NCBI GenBank assembly: GCA_965226795.1
Contig: CBDDDZ010000003.1
Span: 384,001 to 448,000 of the forward strand
Length of the DNA: 64,000 nucleotides
Direction of reading: 5' to 3'
Origin: Candidatus Latescibacterota bacterium
GTDB lineage: Bacteria; Latescibacterota; UBA2968; GCA-2709665
This document shows, piece after piece, positions 1,936 to 16,955 of this stretch. Position 1 is the stretch's first letter. Each line of letters begins with the position of its first letter. Made by a program: the position numbers and the translations under genes. Under the pieces are notes generated by a model. The model saw only the letters and a list, made by a program, of their open reading frames with translations. It had not been told where the DNA came from and ran no database searches.

Positions 1936-2547
1936 ATGAGCACGCCTACAATTCAACTCGACAGAGATCGCCTTCACAGCGCCGGCCTCGGTGTCTTCTT
2001 TCGTCCGAGCCAGATCGATGAGTTGGGGATCACGTACGACCAACTCCGCCGTTTGGTCTCAACCGGGGCCGTTGAGCGGGTCAACCGGGGCCTTTATAGG
2101 CTCGCCAGTGCGGAGCCGACTGAACACGACACACTCGCTGCTGTATGCGCGCGTGTACCCAATGCCGTCATATGCCTGCTTTCGGCGCTCAGCTTTCACG
2201 AAATCGGTACCCGGCTGCCACACGAGGTCTGGATTGCGATTCCCCATAAGGCGAGACCCCCTCGCCTTCCGCAATTCCGAACCCGACTCATCAGGTTCAG
2301 CGGCGCCGCCTGGACCTATGGTGTGTCAGACACCGCATTCGAAGGCGTTCCGGCGCGAATAACCTCGCCCGCTCGCACGATCGTCGATTGTTTCCGATTC
2401 GAACACTTAATCGGACGCGAAACTGCTATTGAGGCATTGCAAGACGGTTTCCGGGAAAAAAAGGTGACTACCGGCGCCCTGCTGCGAACACTTGAGGAGC
2501 TACCTTCGCGCCGGCTGAGCGCGGCCCTGGAAATAGGAATTATATGA
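1936..2547 (+). CDS. abiEi: Type IV TA antitoxin, AbiEi family
   Basis: N-terminal wHTH (VERVNRGLY), ICLLSALSFHEI, TSPARTIVDCFR; ATGA overlap with the toxin gene. Confidence 0.88.
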   Translation: MSTPTIQLDRDRLHSAGLGVFFRPSQIDELGITYDQLRRLVSTGAVERVNRGLYRLASAEPTEHDTLAAVCARVPNAVICLLSALSFHEIGTRLPHEVWIAIPHKARPPRLPQFRTRLIRFSGAAWTYGVSDTAFEGVPARITSPARTIVDCFRFEHLIGRETAIEALQDGFREKKVTTGALLRTLEELPSRRLSAALEIGII

Positions 2548-3497
2548 TCACCGACGTCGCGGCGTCCATCAGATCTCGCCTGTACAATAAGGCAAAAAAA
2601 GTCGTATCGAGTTCCAGTTTTTCCTCGTGCGCTACGCCTGCGAAAGATTCCTATATCGCCTCGGCGCGTGCCCAGTACGTGATCGGTTTATACTCAAAGG
2701 CGCAACTCTGCTTGCCGTTTGGATGGATGAACCCTACCGCGCTACTCGCGATATCGATTTATTGGCGTCCTCCGGTGTCCCTGACGAAATGTACGTGCGA
2801 GAAACTATGAAAACCATCTGCAATGTCCCCTGCCCGGAGGATGGCCTGGTTTTCGATCTCGATAGCTTGCGGATTTCTATGATTCGTTCGGAGCAAGCGT
2901 TCCCGAGCCAACGCGCCAAGCTCAACTGTTATCTTGGAAGCGCGAGAATTCTCACCCAGGTAGACTTTGGTTTCGGCGACGTCGTCACGGCCGGTGCCGA
3001 GCAAGCGAAATTAAAGACCCTCATTGGCGGTGTCCCCGAACCCTCGTTGCTAGTTTATCCGCTGTCGACAAGCGTTGCCGAGAAGTTTGAAGCCATGGTG
3101 CGATTTGGGCAGCGCAATAGCCGTATGAAGGACTTCCATGACATTTGGGCCCTGTCGGATCGGTTTTTCTTTGATGGCGAGAAACTCCGCCGGGCCATCC
3201 GGGACTGTTTCAGCCGGCGTGGCACGGATCTGAACTCCGAGACTCCGGTTGCTCTCACTTCGTCGTTCTACTCGGACAATGACCGGAATAGGCTGTGGCG
3301 CAACTATCGGGTTGAGAACGGGCTCATGACACCGCCACCCGAATCTTTCGGAAATCGTTGGTGAGCGGTTGCAGAGATTTCTTGAGCCTATCCGTGAAAG
3401 CGTCCTGGCCGACACTTCGTTCGACCTTTGTTGGCCCGCTGGTGGACCGTGGCAACCCGTTTCGGACAAAGACAGCGAGAACGGAGACCGAGCTTGA
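2544..3497 (+). pseudogene. abiEii: AbiEii/AbiGii nucleotidyltransferase toxin with two frameshifts
   Basis: AASIRSRL, ERFLYRL, FILKGA, RATRDIDL, AEKFEAM, NSRMKDFHD. Frameshifts in the A7 run (~2594-2600) and near 3351; the typical tail WPAGGPW lies in another frame ending at 3497. Confidence 0.85.
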
Positions 3498-3755: not shown

Positions 3756-3917
3756 AACGTCTTTCCAGGCTCTCGACCAGACGAACTACAGCAAGAATAG
3801 AATATCTTCAAGGGCGATTTACATGTCCGAACTTGGTGCAACACAGATTCCCAAGCCTAGCGACGAGCAAGCCTTTGAGCGGTGCAATGTTACGCTTTAT
3901 CAGAGGAGGATAGACGC

Positions 3918-5243
3918 TTGGAAGGCGACGTCAGGAGATTGATCGACGATCCCCGGTTCCGGGCATACCATCGGGAGCTCCTGAAACCAAGGGAGTTCAA
4001 CACGTTCGACGTTCTCCAGTACGCGGACTACGAAATCCGCCACAGCAACGTGTTGGCGTGGCTGCTCCAGCCCGGCGACACCCACGGTATCGGCGCACGG
4101 TTCCTGAAATGGTTTGTGGACCAGATCGATAAACGGCTCCCGGTGGCGAATGCGGACCGCCTTCCCGCAATCGGCTTTGAGGTGTCGAATGTCGCTGTCT
4201 GGAGAGAACGGGACCACGTCGACATCACGGTCTTGTTCAAGGAAGAGCGGTGTTTGATCGCCATCGAGAATAAGGTGGGACCGGCGTCTACCGACCACGT
4301 TCAGCAAGCCTTGGGCTACGAACGGGAGCTGCGCGAAAAGCACAAGGACCACACGGTGAGAAGCGTCCTGTTGACCACCTCGCCCAACGGAAGCGTGGAC
4401 TTCCCGGGCATTGTCCACGTTGGTTGGGAGTCGGTCCACGAAGTCATCGGCAGATTCTATGCGGAAGGCAGGTTCCAGTCCTGTGGCGTACGGACCTTCG
4501 TACTACAGTACCTTGAACTGGTCGAAAGGTGGTTTGGTTCCGCAGGAGTCGAGGGCTTCAAGAAGCTTCTTGACGACTATCACTCCATCCTGCAGAAGAT
4601 GCGGCAGGTCCTGGACAAGGACGGCGATGACGGTGTCCGTGGGATGGCGCCGGAGGATCGGACGGCGTACCGCGACGCGCTTGTCACGCTGGTGAAGGCA
4701 TCGAGACAGGATCCCTTGGATCTGCGAACGGCGGTGGCAAATTGCCTCAAGCGGCAAGGCTGTAAACTCCAATACGCAATGAATCCCCCGAAGGGGATTT
4801 ATTGGTTGAATTGGCGCAATACCGACCTGGCCGGTTTCGCGCGGAGACTGGGCTGCGGAGACTTCGCCCTCTCGTGGGGGATGACGTTCACCCATCACGA
4901 AGTCCGGGCGGGTTTCTATCTCTATCAAAAGAAGCCAGAGGAGCAGGCCTCGCTGGACCGGCTCAAGCATTTCCTGAAAGCCACGCCGATCAACAGACAT
5001 ATGCCGGACGAATACGTCATGCGGGACAACGGCTTCGGCTGGTATCAGGTCTACGACCTGGAGGTCCTTTCCAGGGATGAGCTTGCCGGCATGTCGGGAC
5101 ACGAGGTCAAGGAGGAAGTGATCCGGAGACTGGAGAACTTCATGGGTCCGGACGACTCGGAGTACAGACGCATCGACGACTACTTCCAATGCCTCGCCTT
5201 CACACCCGACGATTCGGCATCCGCGCGGGAGGATTCGCCATAG
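3918..5243 (+). CDS. PD-(D/E)XK nuclease family protein
   Basis: EIRHSNVLAWLLQP..HGIG, VDI...IAIENK, Q...Y motifs. AGGAGG RBS precedes a TTG start at 3918. Confidence 0.8.
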   Translation: MEGDVRRLIDDPRFRAYHRELLKPREFNTFDVLQYADYEIRHSNVLAWLLQPGDTHGIGARFLKWFVDQIDKRLPVANADRLPAIGFEVSNVAVWRERDHVDITVLFKEERCLIAIENKVGPASTDHVQQALGYERELREKHKDHTVRSVLLTTSPNGSVDFPGIVHVGWESVHEVIGRFYAEGRFQSCGVRTFVLQYLELVERWFGSAGVEGFKKLLDDYHSILQKMRQVLDKDGDDGVRGMAPEDRTAYRDALVTLVKASRQDPLDLRTAVANCLKRQGCKLQYAMNPPKGIYWLNWRNTDLAGFARRLGCGDFALSWGMTFTHHEVRAGFYLYQKKPEEQASLDRLKHFLKATPINRHMPDEYVMRDNGFGWYQVYDLEVLSRDELAGMSGHEVKEEVIRRLENFMGPDDSEYRRIDDYFQCLAFTPDDSASAREDSP

Positions 5244-6363: not shown

Positions 6364-7761
6364 GTGAATTACCGGAAGGCGAACACCAACCATCCATTGA
6401 AGAATAGGCTAAATCCCTACCCGGCCTACAAGGACTCCGGCATCGAATGGCTGGGTGGGATACCAGCGCATTGGGAGGTGAAACGGCTGAAGTATGCTGT
6501 AAATTTGAACCCAGCGTCAACCGAGGCAAGAACCCACGACGATTCGCTTGAGGTCTCGTTTGTACCGATGGAGGCTGTTGGAGAATACGGCGGCCTTGAA
6601 TTGGTGACAACTAAGCCAATACGCGATGTATACGATGGTTACACGTACTTTCGTGAAGGGGATGTTTTGGTCGCGAAAATTACCCCGTGTTTCGAAAATG
6701 GCAAGGGCGCGATCGCTACTGGGCTCGTTAATAAAATTGCATTCGGGACCACGGAGCTGCACATCCTACGGACCAAAAGGACGACAAACCGGCAATTCCT
6801 GTTCTACTTGTCTATGGGAGATGCGTTCAGAAAACTTGGCCAAGCCGAAATGTATGGTGCGGGCGGCCAGAAACGCGTGCCCGAATCATTCATTGCCGAC
6901 TTATTGCACCCGCTCCCACCTCTCCCCGAACAGCGGGCCATCGCCGCTTTCCTTGATCGCGAGACGGCCAGGATCGACACCCTCGTCGAGAAGAAGGAAC
7001 GGCTAATCGAGTTGCTACAGGAAAAGCGCTCCGCGCTCATCAGCCACGCCGTAACGCGGGGTCTCGACCCCGACGTACCCACGAAGGACTCGGGAATCCA
7101 GTGGCTGGGAGAAATTCCGGTGCATTGGGAAGTAAGGAAGATCAAATCTCTGTTGGTTTGCCGAAAAGGTGCAATCAAGACTGGTCCATTCGGCAGCCAA
7201 TTGCACAGTTTCGAAATGACGCATAGCGACATAAAGGTGTTCAATCAGCGGACAGTGATTGATCGCGATATTTGGACCGGTGTGAACTACATTTCGATGG
7301 CTAAATTTAACGAACTACAAGCCTTCGAAGCGTTTCCAGGTGACTTGCTAATTACTACACGGGGCACGATCGGACGATGTCTGATTATTCCATTCGAAGC
7401 TCCTCGAGGTATTCTCCATCCCTGTCTAATGAGGATTCAAATAGACTCAAAGCATGCGTACGATCACTATATCGAGTTGGTCATAGAGAAAAGCGGATTG
7501 ACTTTGGCACAACTTCAATTGATGAGTCATGCTACGACAATTGACGTGATTTATTCGGATTCATTAAAAGAGACTCTACTATCAATTCCACCACTCCCCG
7601 AACAACGCGTTATCGCCGCCTTTCTTGACCGCGAGACGGCAAAGATTGACGCCCTCGCCACAAAGGTCCGAGAAGCCATCGACCGCCTGAAGGAACTCCG
7701 CTCGGCTCTCATTTCCGCGGCGGTGACGGGCAAGATCGATGTGCACGAAAACGTGCCATGA
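6364..7761 (+). CDS. hsdS: Type I R-M specificity subunit
   Basis: Two repeated conserved regions (KDSGI.WLG.IP.HWEV; PPLPEQR.IAAFLDRETA.ID) flanking two TRDs; ends ISAAVTGKIDV. The true start may be ~6397. Confidence 0.95.
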   Translation: MNYRKANTNHPLKNRLNPYPAYKDSGIEWLGGIPAHWEVKRLKYAVNLNPASTEARTHDDSLEVSFVPMEAVGEYGGLELVTTKPIRDVYDGYTYFREGDVLVAKITPCFENGKGAIATGLVNKIAFGTTELHILRTKRTTNRQFLFYLSMGDAFRKLGQAEMYGAGGQKRVPESFIADLLHPLPPLPEQRAIAAFLDRETARIDTLVEKKERLIELLQEKRSALISHAVTRGLDPDVPTKDSGIQWLGEIPVHWEVRKIKSLLVCRKGAIKTGPFGSQLHSFEMTHSDIKVFNQRTVIDRDIWTGVNYISMAKFNELQAFEAFPGDLLITTRGTIGRCLIIPFEAPRGILHPCLMRIQIDSKHAYDHYIELVIEKSGLTLAQLQLMSHATTIDVIYSDSLKETLLSIPPLPEQRVIAAFLDRETAKIDALATKVREAIDRLKELRSALISAAVTGKIDVHENVP

Positions 7762-7910: not shown

Positions 7911-8761
7911 TCACTGTTTTGTCGTCAAATTCCATCCACCTCCGTCTTTGAGAATTAGCTTCATATTCCCGTCCTGATCCGTTCGGTATACCTTGTTTCC
8001 CTTGTTGGAACCGCCAGAATATTTCTCGTATAGTTCGATGGCCTTAGAGTTGGGGTGGCCGTGTGGGTTATCACCAACGGACACAATTGTCATCGCTGGA
8101 TCCATCGCTTCTTAACGTGATCAACGTAGTAGTGTTTTTCATCTTGGGGGTCATCGAAAAACGTGCTTGATCCATGATGGCCTGCTAAAAGTATGTCGCA
8201 CAAGAGTTCACTATTGTTGTAGTCTTCTTTAACTGCATATCTCCATGTCTCAGCATCGCTATCGCCCGTAAGCATTACGCTTCCTTCTCGCGAGACGTCG
8301 TTTGCACTACGTTGCTCAACCTTAAGTACTATGCCTTGCGCGTTGGCGTTTTTGGGTAGTCGTTCGTCTCGCGCACTCAGAAAGCGAAATCGTGTGCGAC
8401 CAAATCCCTGGCGCTTCAACTTCTCTTTGAGAACCGCGCCGACGGTTCTCCTTAGCTGCATGTATTGACGATATTCCGGGGCGTCAATCGAGGTTCCTGG
8501 ATGCCCGCTATCCCAGATCTTCTTAATGGGAAAGTATTCGTTTAACTTGGTTATACCGCGAATATGGTCGGCGTCTCGGTGAGTGCATACAAACGCGGCT
8601 AATATAGACTGCCAACCGATCTGTCTAGCGACGTACTGTAATACTCTATCTTCGTTCTCGTCGGTGATGTTGCAATCAACGACAAAATTGTCTCCATTTG
8701 CCGCTTCAATTAGCGACATGTTGCCCTGTCCAACGTCTATGAAATGTACAATCGTACTCAT
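7911..8761 (-). pseudogene. ComEC/Rec2-like MBL-fold hydrolase split by one frameshift near 8105
   Basis: VHFIDVGQG, THRDADH, LTGD, GHHGS; the continuation in another frame reads IVSVGDNPHGHP...YRTDQDG. Confidence 0.8.
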
Positions 8762-8850
8762 TGTTGGATACTCCACTTCAAGAACTCGAATCTAAAATGC
8801 GTCAGTGTAGATTGCTATTGCATGGAGATCACTTGCTACGAAACTTCCAT

Positions 8851-9603
8851 TTAGTTTTGGCAACTATCAGTGAGATCGTCCCTGTTAAGGCCTACAACCG
8901 CCGCGAAAAAACTTTCTGCGTAACGATCGGCCTTTTGGCGAGTATACTTCGGTAGGATGTATCCTAAGATTACAGTTCCCACCGCGATGAGTGTAGAAAT
9001 GAATGCCAAGAGTGAAGAACCGTTCTGACAGAGATATGTTACCCAGCATCCGACGAGGCTGGCCATAGCGAATGTAATCCACACGCATCTGAGCCCCGTC
9101 AAATTTCGCGCAAACCCGTAGTCGCTGTTGTGTAGACGTACCCGCTCCCCGATAGGTGATTTCCACAACCGACTGCGAAGCTCACTGAGAGCATCGTTAA
9201 TCACGGCCTCAATCTCGTGTTCATTGCCAGTCTCGACGGCTTGAGCGATGTCAAGGCCAACCAAGTCCTTTATGACCTGATACCAACGCTTTTTTTGTTG
9301 ATCGGAAGTTGAATTATCGTCTGGATGGAGCCATCGGTTCGTCGGAGCGTCGTGGGGCCAGGCAGGCCACATTTTTGACTGCAATCGATTGCCAAATGCC
9401 GAAGCAAGATGAGACGCGAATACAGCTAGAAGGGTACTGAACACAACGTAGGACACAAGAAGCTTCACAATTCCGAGAATCGGGATACCGAATGCAACTG
9501 CGACGGTCCACAACGGTAGAACAGAAAGTGCGGCAGGGATAAAACGGGCTTTTCGTTCGTATTGGTCACTCAGGTTTAGGTAGTTGAGCCATCCCTTATT
9601 CAT
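8851..9603 (-). CDS. Four-TM membrane protein, putative defence effector
   Basis: Two N-terminal and two C-terminal hydrophobic helices around a soluble segment (YERKAR..PA, N.DYGFARN); overlaps the upstream gene by 8 bp. Confidence 0.7.
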   Translation of the reverse strand: MNKGWLNYLNLSDQYERKARFIPAALSVLPLWTVAVAFGIPILGIVKLLVSYVVFSTLLAVFASHLASAFGNRLQSKMWPAWPHDAPTNRWLHPDDNSTSDQQKKRWYQVIKDLVGLDIAQAVETGNEHEIEAVINDALSELRSRLWKSPIGERVRLHNSDYGFARNLTGLRCVWITFAMASLVGCWVTYLCQNGSSLLAFISTLIAVGTVILGYILPKYTRQKADRYAESFFAAVVGLNRDDLTDSCQN

Positions 9604-11881
9604 TCGCTATCGCCTCACGTTGGAAGGTGCTTTTCTCCGTTTTGCCAATGTAAAATCCAATATCTCGCCCTTCCCCCACTATTGTCATCGTTGCTGGGTA
9701 GCCGTCGGCTTGCATCAGTTCCTCAAGCCATGCAAGAACCTTCAGATCGTCCTTGCTTGGCTTCGTGCCTGCACCGCTCGGATGTGAATGCCATTCGCCC
9801 ACATACTCAATCATGCCGTGGACTACTTTGGTACGTTGTGCGACTTTCTCCGAAAGCCCCTCACATCCCCGGATGTATAGAGTAGGCCATTCTTCGCTAT
9901 CAGGTGGCGAAGGCAACGCATCGACGACATAGACGATACGTCTCTCCATATCGAAGGAACCCAGTAGAACGCCACCAGTTTCGTTTGGAAGTTTGGATTG
10001 ACGCACACGCGAGAGGGTCTCTATTACGACGTTGTCAGTGACAACTGTCCAATCGTTGGTAATTTTACGCACAACGGGGGCGGGGGATACTTTGACACGA
10101 TTTACGACACCGTCCTCGTTTGAACGCCAGATCGTAATTTGTGCGTCAGCACACCGTACGGCATCGCATACTGCTCTCCCGCCATTGCTCGCGTGAAGAC
10201 CTACCATGTATTGGGGGAGTATGCTTGTGATATCCCGACAGGATTGGGCATAGCGATACCTCCCGGGTGGCTTGTCAAGATGTCCTGACAAGCATCGGTT
10301 GTTTAGAACGGCTCTATAGTACTGCATTTCGAGGGCATCGACGGTAATGTTTCGTTGCTTATCTTCCGCGAGCAGAACGAGGTCTTTCCCGGACGGCGAC
10401 AGGAATAGCGAGATCCTCCGCGCTGTGCTATTGCAATCCTGCGCAATCATCCGTGCAACGCCAACCGATGCCGACATGTCTAGGATCAGGTCGGCCTTAG
10501 CCAGCGCATTGGATAGTTCTTGAGTTCGTCCACCAGGGGATAGCACATTTACTGGAAATGAGCTAAACAGGTCGGAACCGAAAATTATAGTATTCGCTAA
10601 GTGTGCAACGGCATCTGCCTTGTTCCAACCCACAAAACTACCGTCGAGGGCATGCCGGGCTAAATTGTGTGGCAATAGTATGTCGTGATCGATCAGTGTC
10701 CAAGTACCAAACCCTGTTCTCGCAATATTGATTGCAACTTGGGAACCAAGCGCACCCATACCGATCGCAACAACCCTCATATCGACCAATTCATCCTCGC
10801 CATTGAGCTTGGCTGCCATTGAGCGATCGAGGTGATGAACCAGATTCAGCACTGCTATGTCTACATCGTCGCCCGTTTTCGATGTGTCGGGCGGCAATAA
10901 ATAGCCAACCTCTTCTCCCAGTAAATCCCAAAGGCCGATCTTGGCGCCCAGTTGGCGAATTTGCAAGCCCTCAGCACTCTTGTCTTCTGCACTATCCAAA
11001 AGCAAAAACGCCCAACTATCAACTGCCTCGCTCTCTTCTTTTTCATGCCGCATTTTTGGAAACAAAATAACGACGAGAAGATTGGCGTCGAGAACAGATC
11101 TGTCCGTCTGATGCCAGGTCTGGAGACGTTTTCGTAATTCAGAAATAAGGTCGACCTTGGCAACCGCCGTCATGGCAGCAAGGTCAGCAAGTGTCGACGG
11201 AATTTGATGAATGACCCCATGCGTCTGAGGTTCGCAACGATGTACACTTGCAAGTAGCGGCGGCGGTCCTTCATGCGGTTCGCCTGTTAGTGCGATCAGA
11301 AAAAGGCCTTTACTATTATTGTCCGATGTCACCGAAACTACGACTAGCGGGGTTGGTAGGCGCTTCTCCAATTGTTTGGTAGAAGGAAGGACGATGTGCC
11401 CGTGGAAATCCATAAGAAGGGGTTCAAGAGGTTGGTCGTCCTGGTGGAGTTTTCCTTGACTGTTTAAGGATAGCCACCGACGGATGTCGTGGACGAACCT
11501 AGGGGAAGTCCAGCATCGCTTGATTTCCTCGTAAGGTTCTTCGTACACACACATATTTCGAGGATACTCTTGCCGGTGCAGATTGAGGTGCGGCACTCGC
11601 GGGAAATTAACACGTAGGGCATGGACAACAGGTACGTTGTCGTCCTCTTTAGTAAACGACGCGGATATGCGCTCTGTTGCCTTGATCGGGTAACGCTGCA
11701 CCTGTGCGATTTCAACGTCGACCTCAAACACCACAATTTCAATTTTATCCCGCTTACGACATTCGACGAACCGGGCAAAGTCAATGCGCTCAGCCGATAG
11801 ACTGAGCGCGAGATCCTTGGCCTTTGAAATCTCAAGGTCGTTTGGCCGGACGACGTCCCCCGAGACATCAAAATAGCTCAT
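9596..11881 (-). CDS. Prokaryotic E2 - E1(ThiF) - JAB fusion (Cap2/Cap3-like)
   Basis: E2-like FPRVPHLN...NMCVY; ThiF IGMGALGS, IDHD, HNLARH, candidate catalytic Cys in SCRDITS; JAB ETGG...EWHSHP...PSKDD. Confidence 0.9.
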   Translation of the reverse strand: MSYFDVSGDVVRPNDLEISKAKDLALSLSAERIDFARFVECRKRDKIEIVVFEVDVEIAQVQRYPIKATERISASFTKEDDNVPVVHALRVNFPRVPHLNLHRQEYPRNMCVYEEPYEEIKRCWTSPRFVHDIRRWLSLNSQGKLHQDDQPLEPLLMDFHGHIVLPSTKQLEKRLPTPLVVVSVTSDNNSKGLFLIALTGEPHEGPPPLLASVHRCEPQTHGVIHQIPSTLADLAAMTAVAKVDLISELRKRLQTWHQTDRSVLDANLLVVILFPKMRHEKEESEAVDSWAFLLLDSAEDKSAEGLQIRQLGAKIGLWDLLGEEVGYLLPPDTSKTGDDVDIAVLNLVHHLDRSMAAKLNGEDELVDMRVVAIGMGALGSQVAINIARTGFGTWTLIDHDILLPHNLARHALDGSFVGWNKADAVAHLANTIIFGSDLFSSFPVNVLSPGGRTQELSNALAKADLILDMSASVGVARMIAQDCNSTARRISLFLSPSGKDLVLLAEDKQRNITVDALEMQYYRAVLNNRCLSGHLDKPPGRYRYAQSCRDITSILPQYMVGLHASNGGRAVCDAVRCADAQITIWRSNEDGVVNRVKVSPAPVVRKITNDWTVVTDNVVIETLSRVRQSKLPNETGGVLLGSFDMERRIVYVVDALPSPPDSEEWPTLYIRGCEGLSEKVAQRTKVVHGMIEYVGEWHSHPSGAGTKPSKDDLKVLAWLEELMQADGYPATMTIVGEGRDIGFYIGKTEKSTFQREAIANE

Positions 11882-13017
11882 CTTTGGCTACCTGCCCTCG
11901 GTGCGCGCCCTGACGTAGCGATAATTCCCGCGCTTACCACACTCTTTTTCAATGTTGCTTTGCTTTGTCCGATTTCAATCACCAACGGCTTAGGTGAGTT
12001 ACGTGACGGATGTTCCATCGTGACGACGAATTGCCCAACGAGGGCACGCGTGACGTCCTTGTAATAATTCGCAGCCTGTCGATGGGGTGGCTGCGAGTCC
12101 TCGTCTTCGTTACTACCTCCTACGGGAATGGGCTTGCTTGTTGATACCGCGATCGCCCCACGGTGTCCCTTTTTTTCGCATAGCCGCGCCACCTGAGTCA
12201 CGGGTGTGGTTTTGCTTGTGCCCTTTTCGGATCCTATGGAAAGATAGCTGCAGTGGTGGGGAATCTTGAGGATATCCCATTCAAGGTATTCTTCGTTTCC
12301 CTTGAACTCGGTAACGTCAACAATCTGTGACAGCACTTCATGGGTGGAATCAGCCAACATCAGCACTTTGGTATGTACTCCTGCGACATCGAAGGTTGCA
12401 TGCAGCACAAGCGAGTCCTCGTTCCGATCCTCGACCGGTTTATCGTTCTGTCGGATAGCAAATGGCGAGTGAACAAAAAACTCGATATGATCTTTACACA
12501 GAGAAAACTCAGGTGCGATCTCTCCCGCATCCGTAATCAAGTGAAGCCGGTCGTGGAGCTTCATGTCATTTTTTTCGCACCACTTCTCCAACCGTTCCGG
12601 CCGGGAGAAAACACGGATCCCTTTCGCCTGGCGGAATCGATAACGAGCCTCTTTCTGCAAAATGCGCGCCTCATCATCGTCAGGGCTCGTCTCCGTGATG
12701 AACGCAGAGGGCACCCACATCATGTTCATCTTGATGCGTTTTCCAACTTGGTACTTCATCGCATGTTCAAGGTAAAAGAAGTCGGAGGCCCCCTTGAAGT
12801 GATCTTTATCCAGGTGACTGAACGCTACGACGTCGAAGTAGTCACGATTGTTCTTCTTTAGGCCGTCTTTGAGGAGTTCCGGAAGGTCGCACCTAAGGTC
12901 ATTGTCGTCATTTTCATCTTTGGTTGCAGCGTAATCGATAAGGATTGTACGGTCACACGACAGTTCAATGCGACAGCAGTCGGCGTTTCCCAAAGGGAAA
13001 AAGGTCATTGTATGCAT
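11878..13017 (-). CDS. MBL-fold metallohydrolase associated with E2-E1-JAB
   Basis: FFPLGNAD, SHLDKDH, KIPHHCS; low-complexity tail ending SGRAPRAGSQR; GGAGG RBS; ATGA coupling to the E2-E1-JAB gene. Confidence 0.85.
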   Translation of the reverse strand: MHTMTFFPLGNADCCRIELSCDRTILIDYAATKDENDDNDLRCDLPELLKDGLKKNNRDYFDVVAFSHLDKDHFKGASDFFYLEHAMKYQVGKRIKMNMMWVPSAFITETSPDDDEARILQKEARYRFRQAKGIRVFSRPERLEKWCEKNDMKLHDRLHLITDAGEIAPEFSLCKDHIEFFVHSPFAIRQNDKPVEDRNEDSLVLHATFDVAGVHTKVLMLADSTHEVLSQIVDVTEFKGNEEYLEWDILKIPHHCSYLSIGSEKGTSKTTPVTQVARLCEKKGHRGAIAVSTSKPIPVGGSNEDEDSQPPHRQAANYYKDVTRALVGQFVVTMEHPSRNSPKPLVIEIGQSKATLKKSVVSAGIIATSGRAPRAGSQR

Positions 13018-13215
13018 TTTAGCCTCCAACAGGGGTAGTGTTTGTAATTGTCATTTCACGTGAGTTTGGCGAACCGGGAAATGCCGGCCTAAACCGAAAT
13101 CCCAGATTGTCCGCCCAAACCTCCAGCGATGAATCACGCTGATTATCGCGTATGTTTCGGCGATCACTATCCATCTTGATGTCCGGATGACTAACGTCAA
13201 CTATATCGAACCTGG

Positions 13216-14466
13216 TTAAATTCCGTTACTTCCTTCATCGTCGAGGCTCAGGTCGGAAACCGCGTCATCCACTTCGCCGGCATCCACATTCAACATGCCG
13301 ACTAAGTCGATAAGTTCGGCACGGGAGATTCTTTTCCGCCTTAATGCTTCCAGGGCTAACCCGACAAACCGGTCGCGGAATTCGTTACGCAGAGCCTGGT
13401 GGTCCGGTTCCGGAAAGCCCAAGAGCTGCTCCAATTTACGCCCCTTATCCATTCTCTCTTGTTCTAACAGGCTCTCGAGTTCGCTAGCTGTGAGGAGTCG
13501 GGTGCTTCTCAGGCGATAGCAGGCGGCGATTCGGCTGACGCCGAAGTGGTGCGCCATACGCACTACATCGTAGAGCTGTATTTTCTGGCTTCCTGCGGTA
13601 GATCGAGCCCGCCCACGAATTGGCGATCCCTCATCGAACACTTCGGCTTCCATACGGCTGGGTCGCCCCTTTCCGGAAGCGTGGATAAACTGGCGCACTG
13701 CCTCAGCAGGCATCAGAAAGCTGGCGGCAAAGGAGTTGGCACGGACCTCACGTAACTGATCTCGGTCGTGCTCTCGACTGACGAAACCGCCGTGGTCTCG
13801 GTCCATAAGCACGTGACAATATTCGTGTGCGTACGAGAATCGCCTGCGCGAAAAATGGTGCTCCCGATTTGCTACAATGAGGACTCCGATCTCCTGCTTG
13901 ATGAGTGTAAAACCTGATACGTCGTCCGGCAACGTGACCAAGGCAGTACGAACGTCCTGCGATTCGAGAAGCTGGGCGATTTCGGAGATTGACGTAAGGC
14001 CGAGCCCAAGGCGGCCGCGTTCTTCCATTGCGACGCGTTCACCTTGTTGAATAGCCTCCCACGTGGTGCGTGGTTGTGGAAGCGGGTACGCCGCGACTGT
14101 AACTAGATCGCGGTCAATATCCAGCAATTGCTCAAGTCTGGTCATTTCCCGGCCCAAAGCTAAACACCGGAGGAGGGCCTCTCGCAAATCCTCCTTGCTC
14201 GACAGATCCGGGTGAAGTCGGTACAACGCGACGAGTGCATTCTCCTCTTCAGGTTCCTCCTCCGCCACAAAGCTCTGCAGATCCTTACCGAAGAGGATGG
14301 CAAGGCGAAACAGTTCAATACCGTTGACCGTACGGTTGCCCAGTTCGATCTGTGCCACAGTAGAGCGCGAGACTCCGAGGTGATTTGCAACCTCGTCTTG
14401 GGTCAGGCTGCTGGATTCTCTGGCGCGCCTAAGCCTCTGGCCCAACTCTTTATGGTCAATTGCCAT
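13216..14466 (-). CDS. XRE-HTH plus ImmA/IrrE Zn-metallopeptidase regulator
   Basis: LGQRLRRARE..LTQDEVA..LGVSRSTVAQIELG HTH; RRFSYAHEYCH (HExxH); E.RANSFAASFLMP. Confidence 0.9.
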   Translation of the reverse strand: MAIDHKELGQRLRRARESSSLTQDEVANHLGVSRSTVAQIELGNRTVNGIELFRLAILFGKDLQSFVAEEEPEEENALVALYRLHPDLSSKEDLREALLRCLALGREMTRLEQLLDIDRDLVTVAAYPLPQPRTTWEAIQQGERVAMEERGRLGLGLTSISEIAQLLESQDVRTALVTLPDDVSGFTLIKQEIGVLIVANREHHFSRRRFSYAHEYCHVLMDRDHGGFVSREHDRDQLREVRANSFAASFLMPAEAVRQFIHASGKGRPSRMEAEVFDEGSPIRGRARSTAGSQKIQLYDVVRMAHHFGVSRIAACYRLRSTRLLTASELESLLEQERMDKGRKLEQLLGFPEPDHQALRNEFRDRFVGLALEALRRKRISRAELIDLVGMLNVDAGEVDDAVSDLSLDDEGSNGI

Positions 14467-14553
14467 TTCGCCCCTAAGATCATGCCGTAGATTTGCACCG
14501 TGTTCCGCTACACCAAATAGGCGATCGTCGTCGGAAGACTTAATCCGAATGGA

Positions 14554-14594
14554 AAGATAGCTATTCGAACACTATTTGTCAACTTTGGACAAAT
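14554..14594 (-). promoter_or_regulatory. Sigma70 promoter for the minus-strand operon, with an operator over the -35
   Basis: On the minus strand TTGACA (14582-14577), 17 bp, TATCTT (14559-14554); inverted repeat ATTTGTC-N7-GACAAAT (14574-14594). Confidence 0.7.
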
Positions 14595-15150
14595 GTGTTA
14601 GGATTTCATATATTCTCTTCGGGGTTTGACCGCGTCTCCGAAGGCTCGGGGTGAGTGTGTAGATAGGCTATATGCTTGATATCGACGTTTCCATCTGCAC
14701 CAAGAAATTTCACCACGGATTCGGCATCTACCCTGTTTCAGGGGAGTGGATGCCGGAAAATGATCCGGTTCTTTCCTTCCTAATTCATTCGCATTATATT
14801 ATTTTCGATTCAAAGCGTTACCGCTAATAGGAATCGTTCTTATTTTCCCAACCGAAGACAAGGCAAGTTGGTGACACCTGCCACCGATGTAACGCGCGCG
14901 CCTCATGGTCGCACCGTGCGATGTCCGGGGGGCTAGACCGCATCCGGAGAAATGGATAGACGCAGATGAAACAAGGCGAAATTGTCTTTGAAGTGCGCGA
15001 GGCGGTCGAAGTTGGCGATAACGTCAAGCGGGAAGTTGATGCCACAGATACAGCATTGTCCCGCTCAACGGTGGCGAATCCGCAGCCATACGGCGCGAAA
15101 GCGCCAACGACGCGCTTGATGAGACCAGTCTGACTGGTTATATTCACGCA

Positions 15151-15431
15151 ATGACACTGATCTACTCAACTTCTGAAGCAAAGGCGCGGTTTTCGGAGGT
15201 CATCCGTGCAAGTGCGCGAAGGCAGGACCGTCACGGTTTCTTTATCGAGGAGAGCCCGTGGCTGAGATCCGCGGAATCCAGCGTCACCAGCAGACGACGA
15301 TCGAAGAGCGACTGGACGATCTCCAACGACGCGGGGTCCTGGTGCGATCGGGAGCGCCAAGGCAGGCGTTTCAGCCAGTGGCGCGTCGGCCGGGTGCCCT
15401 GGCGCGGTTCCTGGCTGAGCGTGGCGAATGA
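15151..15431 (+). pseudogene. Phd/YefM antitoxin, frameshifted
   Basis: MTLIYSTSEAKARFSEVIR, then QVREGRTVTVS / YRGEPVAEI in other frames; ATGA overlap with a PIN remnant. Confidence 0.75.
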
Positions 15432-15583
15432 GCGCGGCGAACGTCGATACGTCGGTATTGGCCGCCATCGCCTTCGACGAACAGAACCCCGGCGAACTCC
15501 TGCTCTTCACGCTTGACGACCGATAGTGCGCTGTGGCCGCCGTGCTCGGCTTTGTCACTCCGGAGGGACTGTATTCGCTATGA
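15428..15583 (+). pseudogene. VapC/PIN toxin remnant (internal deletion)
   Basis: MSAANVDTSVLAAIAFDE joined directly to a C-terminal-like FTLDDR*.AVAAVLGF. Confidence 0.6.
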
Positions 15584-15683
15584 GCCTCGCGGTTTCAGAA
15601 ACCTCTTTCCAGTACACCATCTACCTGGAACTGGCTTATATTGTGGAAGCCGGTTCTTTTCTTTTTCGCCCATTTGCATTATA

Positions 15684-15715
15684 TTATTAGCGACTTAAAG
15701 CAATGACGCTAATAA
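15684..15715. promoter_or_regulatory. Inverted-repeat operator upstream of fic
   Basis: TTATTAGCG-N14-CGCTAATAA in an AT-rich intergenic region. Confidence 0.55.
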
Positions 15716-15734: not shown

Positions 15735-16955
15735 ATGTGCAAACAAGGCACGGTCATGACACCAGGAAACAACGGGCGTAGCCCGCCCCCCGGTCGCACA
15801 ATCCGATGTCCGGAAGGCTATAGCGCATACGTACCGGCGCCACTTCCGCCCGATATTGCCTGGGACAAGGAACTCGCCCTCGCGCTTTCCCATGCCGACC
15901 GTGCAGTGGGCCGGCTCGCGGGCGAAGGCCGGCTGATGCCGATTCCGTATCTCTTTATCAGGGCATTCCTGTACAAGGAAGCGGTGCTTTCCAGCCGCAT
16001 CGAGGGCACGCAGGTTTCCCTGGGCGAATTGTTCGCCGCAAATGCCGGAGCGAGAGTCGAGCGAAGCGCAGAGGAATTGGAAGAGGTGGCAAACTACATC
16101 GTGGCGTTAGACTACGGCATCGATCGCTTGGCAACGCTTCCGCTTTCATTGCGCCTGGTTCGGGAACTGCACGAGCGGCTGATGCGCGGCGTGCGCGGCG
16201 ACACTGCGACGCCGGGCGAGTTTCGCCGCATCCAGAACTGGATCGGCCCGCCCGGATGTGGTGGGAGCAACGCGACTTACGTTCCACCGCCCCCGGATGA
16301 ACTGATGGATTGCCTCGGCGCGTGGGAGCGATTTCTCCACGACGAAACACTTCCTCCTCTCGTCCACGCCGCTCTCATCCATTCGCAGTTCGAGGCCATC
16401 CATCCGTTTCTCGACGGGAATGGACGTATCGGTCGGCTGCTCATTCCGCTGCTGTTCGCTGCCCGTGGCGTTTTACCAACACCGCTTCTGTATCTGAGCG
16501 CATACTTTGAATCGACGCGGCAGGAGTACTATGAACACCTTCTAAGGGTGACCCACGACGGAGAGTGGGAGGCGTGGCTGGTGTACTTTCTGCGCGGTGT
16601 TGCCGAGCAGGCCGAGGACGCCATTCGTCGGATCCGCCGCATCGACGAATTGTTCCATCGTTGGTCGGAGCAAATCGCAGGCGTCAGATCGGGGAATCTG
16701 GAGACGGTTTTGGAACTGTTCGTCGAATTCCCGTTCTGGAACGTGCGCATGCTCGCATCAAAGCTGGGGGTCGCCTACACGACGGCTCGGCGCGCCGTCG
16801 ATCGGTTGGAATCAGCAGGTATTGTCACGCAGGTTGGCGACGCAAAGCGAAACCGTGTATATTGTGCGGACGCAGTACTCGAAGTCCTCGACGCGCCGCA
16901 TATCGAAAATCAAGACGAACCGAAAGCCACAATGACTTCGCGAGTCGCATTATGA
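15735..16955 (+). CDS. fic: Fic family protein with C-terminal wHTH
   Basis: EAVLSSRIEG inhibitory-helix motif; HPFLDGNGRIGR Fic motif. Confidence 0.93.
   Translation: MCKQGTVMTPGNNGRSPPPGRTIRCPEGYSAYVPAPLPPDIAWDKELALALSHADRAVGRLAGEGRLMPIPYLFIRAFLYKEAVLSSRIEGTQVSLGELFAANAGARVERSAEELEEVANYIVALDYGIDRLATLPLSLRLVRELHERLMRGVRGDTATPGEFRRIQNWIGPPGCGGSNATYVPPPPDELMDCLGAWERFLHDETLPPLVHAALIHSQFEAIHPFLDGNGRIGRLLIPLLFAARGVLPTPLLYLSAYFESTRQEYYEHLLRVTHDGEWEAWLVYFLRGVAEQAEDAIRRIRRIDELFHRWSEQIAGVRSGNLETVLELFVEFPFWNVRMLASKLGVAYTTARRAVDRLESAGIVTQVGDAKRNRVYCADAVLEVLDAPHIENQDEPKATMTSRVAL

Follow-up and report, generated by a model that had tools for sequence, protein, structure and literature searches.

In the present study, we analysed a 64,000-nucleotide stretch of a Candidatus Latescibacterota genome (assembly GCA_965226795.1, contig CBDDDZ010000003.1, positions 384,001 to 448,000; hereafter the window), and in particular one operon in it, which joins a metallo-beta-lactamase-fold (MBL) enzyme and a single-chain E2-E1-JAB ligase to a four-transmembrane protein (4TM; TM for its wider family) and a second MBL. 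Judged from its sequence, this operon is a modular variant of a known system, 6A-MBL. An earlier note on the same DNA had described five co-directional genes here, and all five do lie on the minus strand where it had placed them. They are given below with their regulatory sites and the borders of the slot that holds them.

13216-14466, minus strand: regulator of 416 residues with a helix-turn-helix (HTH) and a zinc-peptidase domain (HTH_3 and Peptidase_M78 in Pfam), hereafter HTH-M78
11878-13017, minus strand: MBL1, the 6A-MBL enzyme, 379 residues from the ATG at 13017 (NF058524)
9596-11881, minus strand: E2-E1-JAB fusion (6A-MBL cap2_3), 761 residues (NF058523, Prok-E2_A, ThiF, Prok-JAB)
8851-9603, minus strand: 4TM protein of 250 residues, likely of the Csx27 superfamily through a one-step profile link
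7911-8761, minus strand: MBL2, ComEC-like, of the PADLOC PDC-M48B kind, with its frame broken near 8109
14582-14554, minus strand: promoter-like site TTGACA-17-TATCTT, matching the consensus at 10 of 12 positions
14574-14594: 7-bp palindrome overlapping the promoter-like site, a putative and likely operator
6364-7761, plus strand: hsdS (Methylase_S), left border of the variable defence slot
15735-16955, plus strand: fic (Fic_N and Fic), right border of the slot by synteny

The overlaps read earlier among the MBL1, ligase and 4TM genes are real, at 4 nt between MBL1 and the ligase and 8 nt between the ligase and the 4TM gene. Of the remaining gaps, the one between regulator and MBL1 measures about 200 nt and the one between 4TM and MBL2 about 90 nt, so that neither a CD-NTase gene nor a normal ubiquitin-like one would fit; with all five open reading frames (ORFs) assigned otherwise by family scans, the reported absence of a CD-NTase and of a beta-grasp ubiquitin gene holds. 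Likewise, the Methylase_S and Fic matches on the opposite strand of the flanks agree with an antisense insertion between hsdS and fic-hsdR, where the hsdR-like gene next after fic is named from motifs and has no hidden Markov model basis. The claim that the block is lower in GC than the core genes stands for the four downstream genes (47.5-51%, where the window as a whole has 57.5% and the genes hsdM, fic and hsdR have 58-60%); the regulator has 55.8%, and hsdS, at 51.4%, is as low as the operon block.

Both core genes exceed the curated NCBIfam cut-offs for 6A-MBL (NF058523, 624 bits against 320 for the ligase; NF058524, 391 bits against 220 for MBL1), and the core is therefore this named system, as the earlier note had suggested. 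In the accessible parts of the sources, 6A-MBL corresponds to the operons that Iyer, Burroughs and Aravind 2006 (PMC1779556) class as type 6a, is cited as anti-phage in a review (PMC13276650) and stands among the listed jumbo-phage defences of a preprint (10.1101/2025.09.30.679545). The three ligase domains, Prok-E2_A, ThiF and Prok-JAB, follow one another in one chain at residues 49-171, 357-486 and 620-717. Conservation was read from ORFs of near-full length, with duplicates removed, taken from 66 loci and from the window; these comprised 43 ligases and 49 MBL1 sequences. Invariant in all 43 ligases were H98 and C111 of E2, the GxGxxG motif at 374-379 and C548 of E1, and E634, H698, H700 and D712 of JAB, while the MBL metal ligands were 98-100% conserved.

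The AlphaFold model of MBL1 consists of a ComEC-type metallo-hydrolase domain and then a 19-residue disordered tail (predicted local distance difference test, pLDDT, below 50) that ends in PRAG-SQR, and the tail extension contains the overlap with the start codon of the next gene. The model's best match in the PDB is the ComEC MBL domain 9ic4 (E 4e-13), and the earlier ComEC-like reading is right for both MBLs. The C-terminal residue is exactly glycine in 33 of the 49 MBL1 sequences (background 5.7%), and under a permissive pattern a glycine motif such as RAG, xHG or FG lies within the final nine residues of 48; in the one exception an insertion cuts the sequence. Among 14 second MBLs, a terminal glycine was seen in none. 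The CD-NTase tail used by Cap2 is likewise disordered, as far as the accessible text of a preprint goes (10.1101/2022.03.31.486616). MBL1 is thus likely, by analogy with Cap2, to be the conjugated substrate of the ligase, and since it bears the conjugation tail itself, the missing ubiquitin gene is no puzzle. [quoted passage not shown] No signal peptide is predicted in MBL1 or MBL2. As a separate observation, insertion-sequence-like ORFs interrupt the MBL1 tail at locus L056 (5976-8445) and the ligase at locus L090 (3687-7249).

The 4TM protein matched no Pfam or NCBIfam family above cut-off. Hydropathy places its helices at about 20-71 and 173-219, and its AlphaFold model (pLDDT 95) shows two helical hairpins; the predicted topology has tiny uncharged outer loops, with the charged ends and a middle domain of about 100 residues in the cytoplasm. 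Relatives are abundant, with 1,774 representatives at E <= 0.001; a homolog search with the TM of locus L056 gave 5 unnamed matches. The link to a known family came from profiles: profile A2, built for the family of the window protein, aligned with A3, a small group, at a probability of 98.5 (E 3.8e-15, 213 columns), and A3 member P0277 matches the PADLOC Csx27 model at 6.6e-8 over residues 1-185, most of the model. Unrelated membrane proteins used as controls scored 0.2-11% against the profile and gave no alignment. The comparison was made with Csx27 models and not with true Csx27 sequences; on this indirect profile link, the 4TM protein likely belongs to the Csx27 superfamily in the wide sense. 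Other searches named nothing: the profile against PDB sequences gave only noise, a Foldseek search with the model stayed empty at E <= 0.001, and all that came from the ESM Atlas were "hypothetical protein" clusters. A fold match by VIA (best Z 7.0) was set aside as one of generic long helices, weak DUF2207_C hits in 22 of 93 A2 members (best 7.7e-5) as hydrophobic noise, and identity with a CBASS 4TM effector at E >= 0.02. The missing fold match does not show a new fold.

We surveyed the neighbourhoods of these genes in three sets. The TM-selected set comprises 37 GTDB loci; the ligase-selected set was picked by NF058523 and has 25 loci, of which 9 come from the 168 genomes surveyed in the window's own phylum and another 16 were drawn from three samples of 401 genomes, excluding four centre genomes that had themselves been found via the TM; and the MBL2-selected set comprises 27 metagenome loci, many on short contigs. 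Some of the ligase-selected loci had themselves gone into the MBL2 and A3 profiles. Among the TM-selected loci, 30 adjoin the ligase, six adjoin only a ComEC-like MBL, and one, at a contig edge, has neither; an MBL adjoins the TM in 34, the other three being at contig edges, and two of the 30 ligase loci are cut before MBL1. MBL2 is absent from 26 of those 30.

The ligase-selected set tells the same from the other side. The third position holds the TM family in 15 of the 25 loci (13 found by script, together with L090, split by an insertion, and L049, through a profile link), a patatin in five, once fused to JAB, another TM protein in three and nothing evident in two. A membrane-acting third gene is thus present in 23/25, so the usual two-gene model of 6A-MBL leaves out a part. 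TM and patatin never occur together in this set (0/25). TM and a second MBL accompany the ligase in six loci, all six of whose MBL2s are independently matched by PADLOC PDC-M48B. The recurrence of the 4TM gene and of the second MBL beside the ligase, on which the earlier note had staked its proposal, is therefore confirmed, and the 4TM protein is a real partner of the ligase core. What fell is the five-gene form as a fixed system, which the locus counts rule out: only these six of the 25 loci carry TM and MBL2, and a close relative of the regulator was seen only in one same-genus genome, G056. Within the MBL2-selected set, 14 of the 27 loci adjoin the TM family, 2 with the ligase in view and 12 without. 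Three plasmid loci were examined out of 246 records; two consist of a WYL gene and the two core genes, and one carries a patatin.

Proteins at the third slot or beside MBL2 that had no profile link to the TM family were counted as unrelated, namely the TM proteins of L083 and L088, a two-TM protein in L089 and short TM proteins of 167-169 residues beside MBL2. They include two more membrane families without annotation, one of which occupies the third slot of 6A-MBL (L083, 7159-7794; L088, 7305-7943) and the other stands beside MBL2 (L097, 4356-4859; L104; L107). Other loci hold neighbours or fusions of their own: one chain of 1183 residues joins E2, E1, JAB and patatin (L057, 8668-12219); a retron-type reverse transcriptase (PADLOC RT_VI, 1e-78) and an HTH gene lie co-directionally and immediately 5' of TM-MBL1-E2-E1 (L091, 859-5953); a Csx27-like TM has on each side a ComEC-like MBL, the two being different, and the ligase is not in view (L098, 345-2716; L112, 74-2751); a TIR gene follows the TM (L012, 10806-11819); DndB follows an MBL-TM pair (L034, 10847-12121); and a nucleotidyltransferase lies 2 kb downstream of a TM-type 6A-MBL (L021, 12772-13605).

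In G056, the regulator, MBL1 and ligase occupy the same site with 88, 87 and 76% protein identity. Its DNA is 82% identical up to the end of JAB and there the identity stops, to be followed by a distant TM and a different MBL. TM and MBL2 are a swappable add-on module, then, and the pair is also found without the ligase. The module in the window is at first sight damaged. Two extra bases at 8109, present in the contig of run X1, break the frame of MBL2, and a full-length relative aligns in frames -1 and then -3 across 8111; the same bases are absent from the contigs of X2 (same sample, depth 4) and X3 (another study, about 93% alike), so there is an allele with the frame intact, and what breaks it here is either a strain allele or an error of assembly. 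PADLOC PDC-M48B matches the window's MBL2 at 2e-14 and its relatives down to 1e-145, and the window's MBL2 lacks the glycine tail. For the candidate partner, one M48A model (125 positions), run with no positive control, matched nothing in 5 genomes, and a literature search for "PDC-M48" found none.

The promoter-like site and its overlapping palindrome are present, as the earlier note had it, and in G056 both hexamers are kept and the palindrome only in part. The promoter scan as a whole was near chance, however, with 9 sites against 6.3 +/- 2.8 in shuffled sequence, so one promoter for all five genes is plausible at most. On the plus strand, a divergent promoter-like site (14586-14614, 10/12) overlaps the same palindrome, and one operator might therefore also control the fic-hsdR side. 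The regulator carries HEYCH, a zinc-peptidase motif, at 214-218, and with HTH_3, Peptidase_M78 and PADLOC matches to RmrA (1.5e-26), capP (4e-17) and capH (1e-5), its reading as CapH/CapP-like is upheld. Upstream regulators differ by locus, being of the HTH/M78 kind in L009, L028, L050 and L052 and of the WYL kind in L079, L094 and L095.

From all this we propose, at roughly even confidence, a membrane-level anti-phage system in which the ligase would switch or relocate the ComEC-type MBL1 through its tail and the Csx27-like TM would place the MBLs at the inner membrane. The scheme starts from the intact catalytic sets of E2, E1, JAB and MBL1 and from the conserved disordered glycine tail that MBL1 has and MBL2 lacks. 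Very probably, by analogy with Cap2/Cap3, JAB would remove SQR, E1 would adenylate Gly376, C548 and C111 would relay the chain to a target and JAB would reverse the bond, so that MBL1 is switched or relocated. What follows the ligase is almost always a gene acting at the membrane, either a Csx27-like TM or a patatin, and the TM in turn almost always has a ComEC-like MBL next to it, whether or not the ligase is there; it is a tentative suggestion that the TM may be a membrane platform placing the MBL nuclease where foreign DNA enters, and that TM and MBL2 may form a plug-in also working alone. Somewhat better than even, again by analogy with CapH/CapP, is the idea that the HTH-M78 protein would repress the operon from the palindrome until self-cleavage on DNA damage relieves it. 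The target would probably be incoming phage DNA at the cytoplasmic face of the inner membrane: in the models the soluble mass of the TM lies inside and the MBLs lack a signal peptide, so action in the cytoplasm would fit and DNA uptake would fit poorly.

Several points weigh against this proposal. The surveyed loci are partly kin and a few are common to several sets, so the counts are not independent. Two-gene 6A-MBL loci exist (L082 and the plasmids L094 and L095), and the TM is therefore dispensable in some lineages; 13 of the 27 MBL2-selected loci lack the TM family, several with room to show one. Only 4 of 93 A2 members match the PADLOC Csx27 model directly, and weakly (best 4e-4), and neither the window protein nor its genome matched the type VI-B Csx27 model NF040557 (cut-off 65 bits). 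The wide TM family has no conserved lysine (69% at best), which disfavours the TM as a fixed conjugation acceptor. As for MBL1, the runner-up in the fold search is a phosphorylcholine esterase, and its nuclease activity is predicted from the fold alone.

The arrangement also invites comparison with cyclase-free, CBASS-like signalling, in which a conjugated MBL1 would make a small-molecule signal, the TM or patatin of the slot would be the death effector and MBL2 would degrade the signal. The genes come in the same order as in type II CBASS, MBL1 standing where the cyclase would be, TM and patatin alternate, the patatin-JAB fusion of L057 and the TIR gene after the TM in L012 point the same way, and the published term for the MBL suits it. 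MBL folds, on the other hand, are hydrolases; the one patatin that we tested matched no PADLOC CBASS model; the two-gene loci have no effector; L025 carries both TM and patatin; and TM and MBL2 without MBL1 are not what one expects of a mere eraser. We consider this account unlikely, though not negligible. A bolder form of it, which we also hold unlikely, would make 6A-MBL a third signalling chassis beside CBASS and Pycsar, with a conjugation-gated ComEC-type hydrolase in the cyclase's place firing interchangeable membrane effectors (a Csx27-family channel or a patatin) through a messenger or through ATG8-like attachment to the membrane. If that were true, the Csx27 family would no longer be a CRISPR accessory but an immune effector of wide occurrence.

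Alternatively, two independent systems may be stacked in a hotspot, first 6A-MBL and then a stand-alone, PDC-M48B-like TM and MBL, with the promoter alone shared. The pair alone in 6/37 TM-selected and 12/27 MBL2-selected loci, the swap of the unit in G056 and the use of the slot as a cargo hotspot would agree with that; yet most TM-ligase loci (the 26 of 30 above) have the TM with 6A-MBL alone, its coupling stays tight in many phyla, whether it lies upstream or downstream of the core, and the closest relatives of the window TM (about 45-60% identical) adjoin 6A-MBL and not MBL2, which makes stacking decidedly unlikely. It is more improbable still that the TM is a brake or a sink on which MBL1 is parked until infection. 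According to the accessible text of two sources, Csx27 represses Cas13b (PMC8209922) and Cap2 joins a Bacillus CBASS cyclase to PspA, keeping the cyclase inactive (PMC11153139); K18 and K224 reach 90% conservation within the close clade of the 4TM protein. These lysines are not conserved in the wide family, though, and the exchange of the TM for an active-site phospholipase suggests an effector slot. Least credible of all is a ubiquitin-regulated channel for DNA uptake or degradation, as reviews, so far as their text was accessible, report Makarova et al. 2019 to have proposed for the Csx27 family, for although both MBLs are closest to the ComEC domain and the TM is Csx27-like, the MBLs have no signal peptide, the TM has almost no outside domain, the distribution is patchy (10/168 phylum and 2/15 genus genomes) and the locus lies inside a restriction-modification island.

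That island has further cargo. A PD-(D/E)XK nuclease gene (PDDEXK_4, window 3882-5243), matching the PADLOC candidate PDC-S26 at 1e-34, lies together with an AbiE pair (1936-3364) between an hsdM-like gene and hsdS, and with this cargo inside the restriction-modification genes, two cargo slots therefore interrupt the type I locus. Between the regulator and fic, at 15151-15700, there are short antitoxin/PIN-like ORFs that look broken and are named from motifs. The content of the hsdS-fic slot differs across G050, G053 and G056. In G050 (L124, 3497-14098) it comprises a cysteine desulfurase, DUF4007, a large ORF, a PAPS reductase and a GHKL protein, genes which we take to be phosphorothioation-like, and in G053 (L125, 3264-5521) an Mrr-type nuclease, an M78 protein and DUF4411. 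Short pieces at least 99% alike were found in one sponge metagenome run (11/30 bins), and two RNA runs gave a word share of only 0.10-0.11.

As to novelty, the earlier note did not recognise the five-gene form as described. In the accessible parts of three reviews (PMC8209922, PMC7642515, PMC11662929) and a preprint (10.1101/2021.11.02.466367), Makarova et al. 2019 (fnz088) are credited with placing four-TM proteins of the Csx27 family in operons that also hold natural-transformation genes, WYL proteins and components of the ubiquitin system, and with proposing them as ssDNA channels; since the 4TM protein is Csx27-like, the layout was probably noted in silico by those authors, and that part of the claim probably falls. 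Our searches found no third gene mentioned in the accessible passages on "6A-MBL", no literature since 2022 on Csx27 with a defense system and MBL, nothing new on MBL/Pycsar/Cap2/JAB, and no paper testing such an operon, with three key papers and their supplements beyond search reach. The present analysis contributes the link to Csx27, the natural exchange of the cassette in G056, a TM and MBL pair that also occurs on its own, and a frameshift that is not fixed. The Csx27 family has had no mechanism since its discovery, and its only tested member, according to the part of a review that was accessible (PMC8209922), dampens Cas13b, so that "membrane effector" in the earlier note was too firm a label for the 4TM protein; here the family stands in a compact operon with a natural swap, of the TM and MBL pair in G056 and for a patatin elsewhere. 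The operon thus makes testable the conjugation target of the MBL, the role of Csx27-like proteins and the interchangeability of the slot genes.

Compared with known systems, the operon shares with 6A-MBL an MBL gene followed by a single-chain E2-E1-JAB and the lack of a ubiquitin-like protein and of a CD-NTase; it differs in adding the Csx27-like 4TM, the second MBL and the HTH-M78 regulator to what the accessible text describes as "usually two genes" (PMC1779556). Bil and Bub systems, in contrast, have a beta-grasp ubiquitin-like gene and separate E1 and E2 proteins, neither of which appears in the ORF list or family scans of the window. With type II CBASS and Pycsar (Cap2, Cap3) it has in common an E2-E1 ligase and a JAB protease that would act, by analogy, on a disordered C-terminal enzyme tail, a variable membrane or phospholipase gene and regulators of the CapH/CapP or WYL type; here, however, there is no nucleotide cyclase, JAB is fused to the ligase and the 4TM protein is neither of the two CBASS effector kinds, 4TM and 2TM (its best E with PADLOC 4TM models being 0.023-0.063). 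The regulator resembles RosmerTA RmrA and CapH plus CapP in its HTH and HExxH zinc-peptidase domains, but is one polypeptide, co-directional, about 200 nt before the MBL and not beside a small toxin. MBL2 and its counterparts match PDC-M48B of the PADLOC candidate PDC-M48, and no TM matched a PDC-M48A model. Finally, the four-TM protein with ComEC-like and ubiquitin-system genes, and with WYL upstream in L079, L094 and L095, is what Csx27-family operons also contain, while the block in the window has no Cas13b or CRISPR genes, has HTH-M78 as its regulator and encodes a TM protein below all Csx27 cut-offs.

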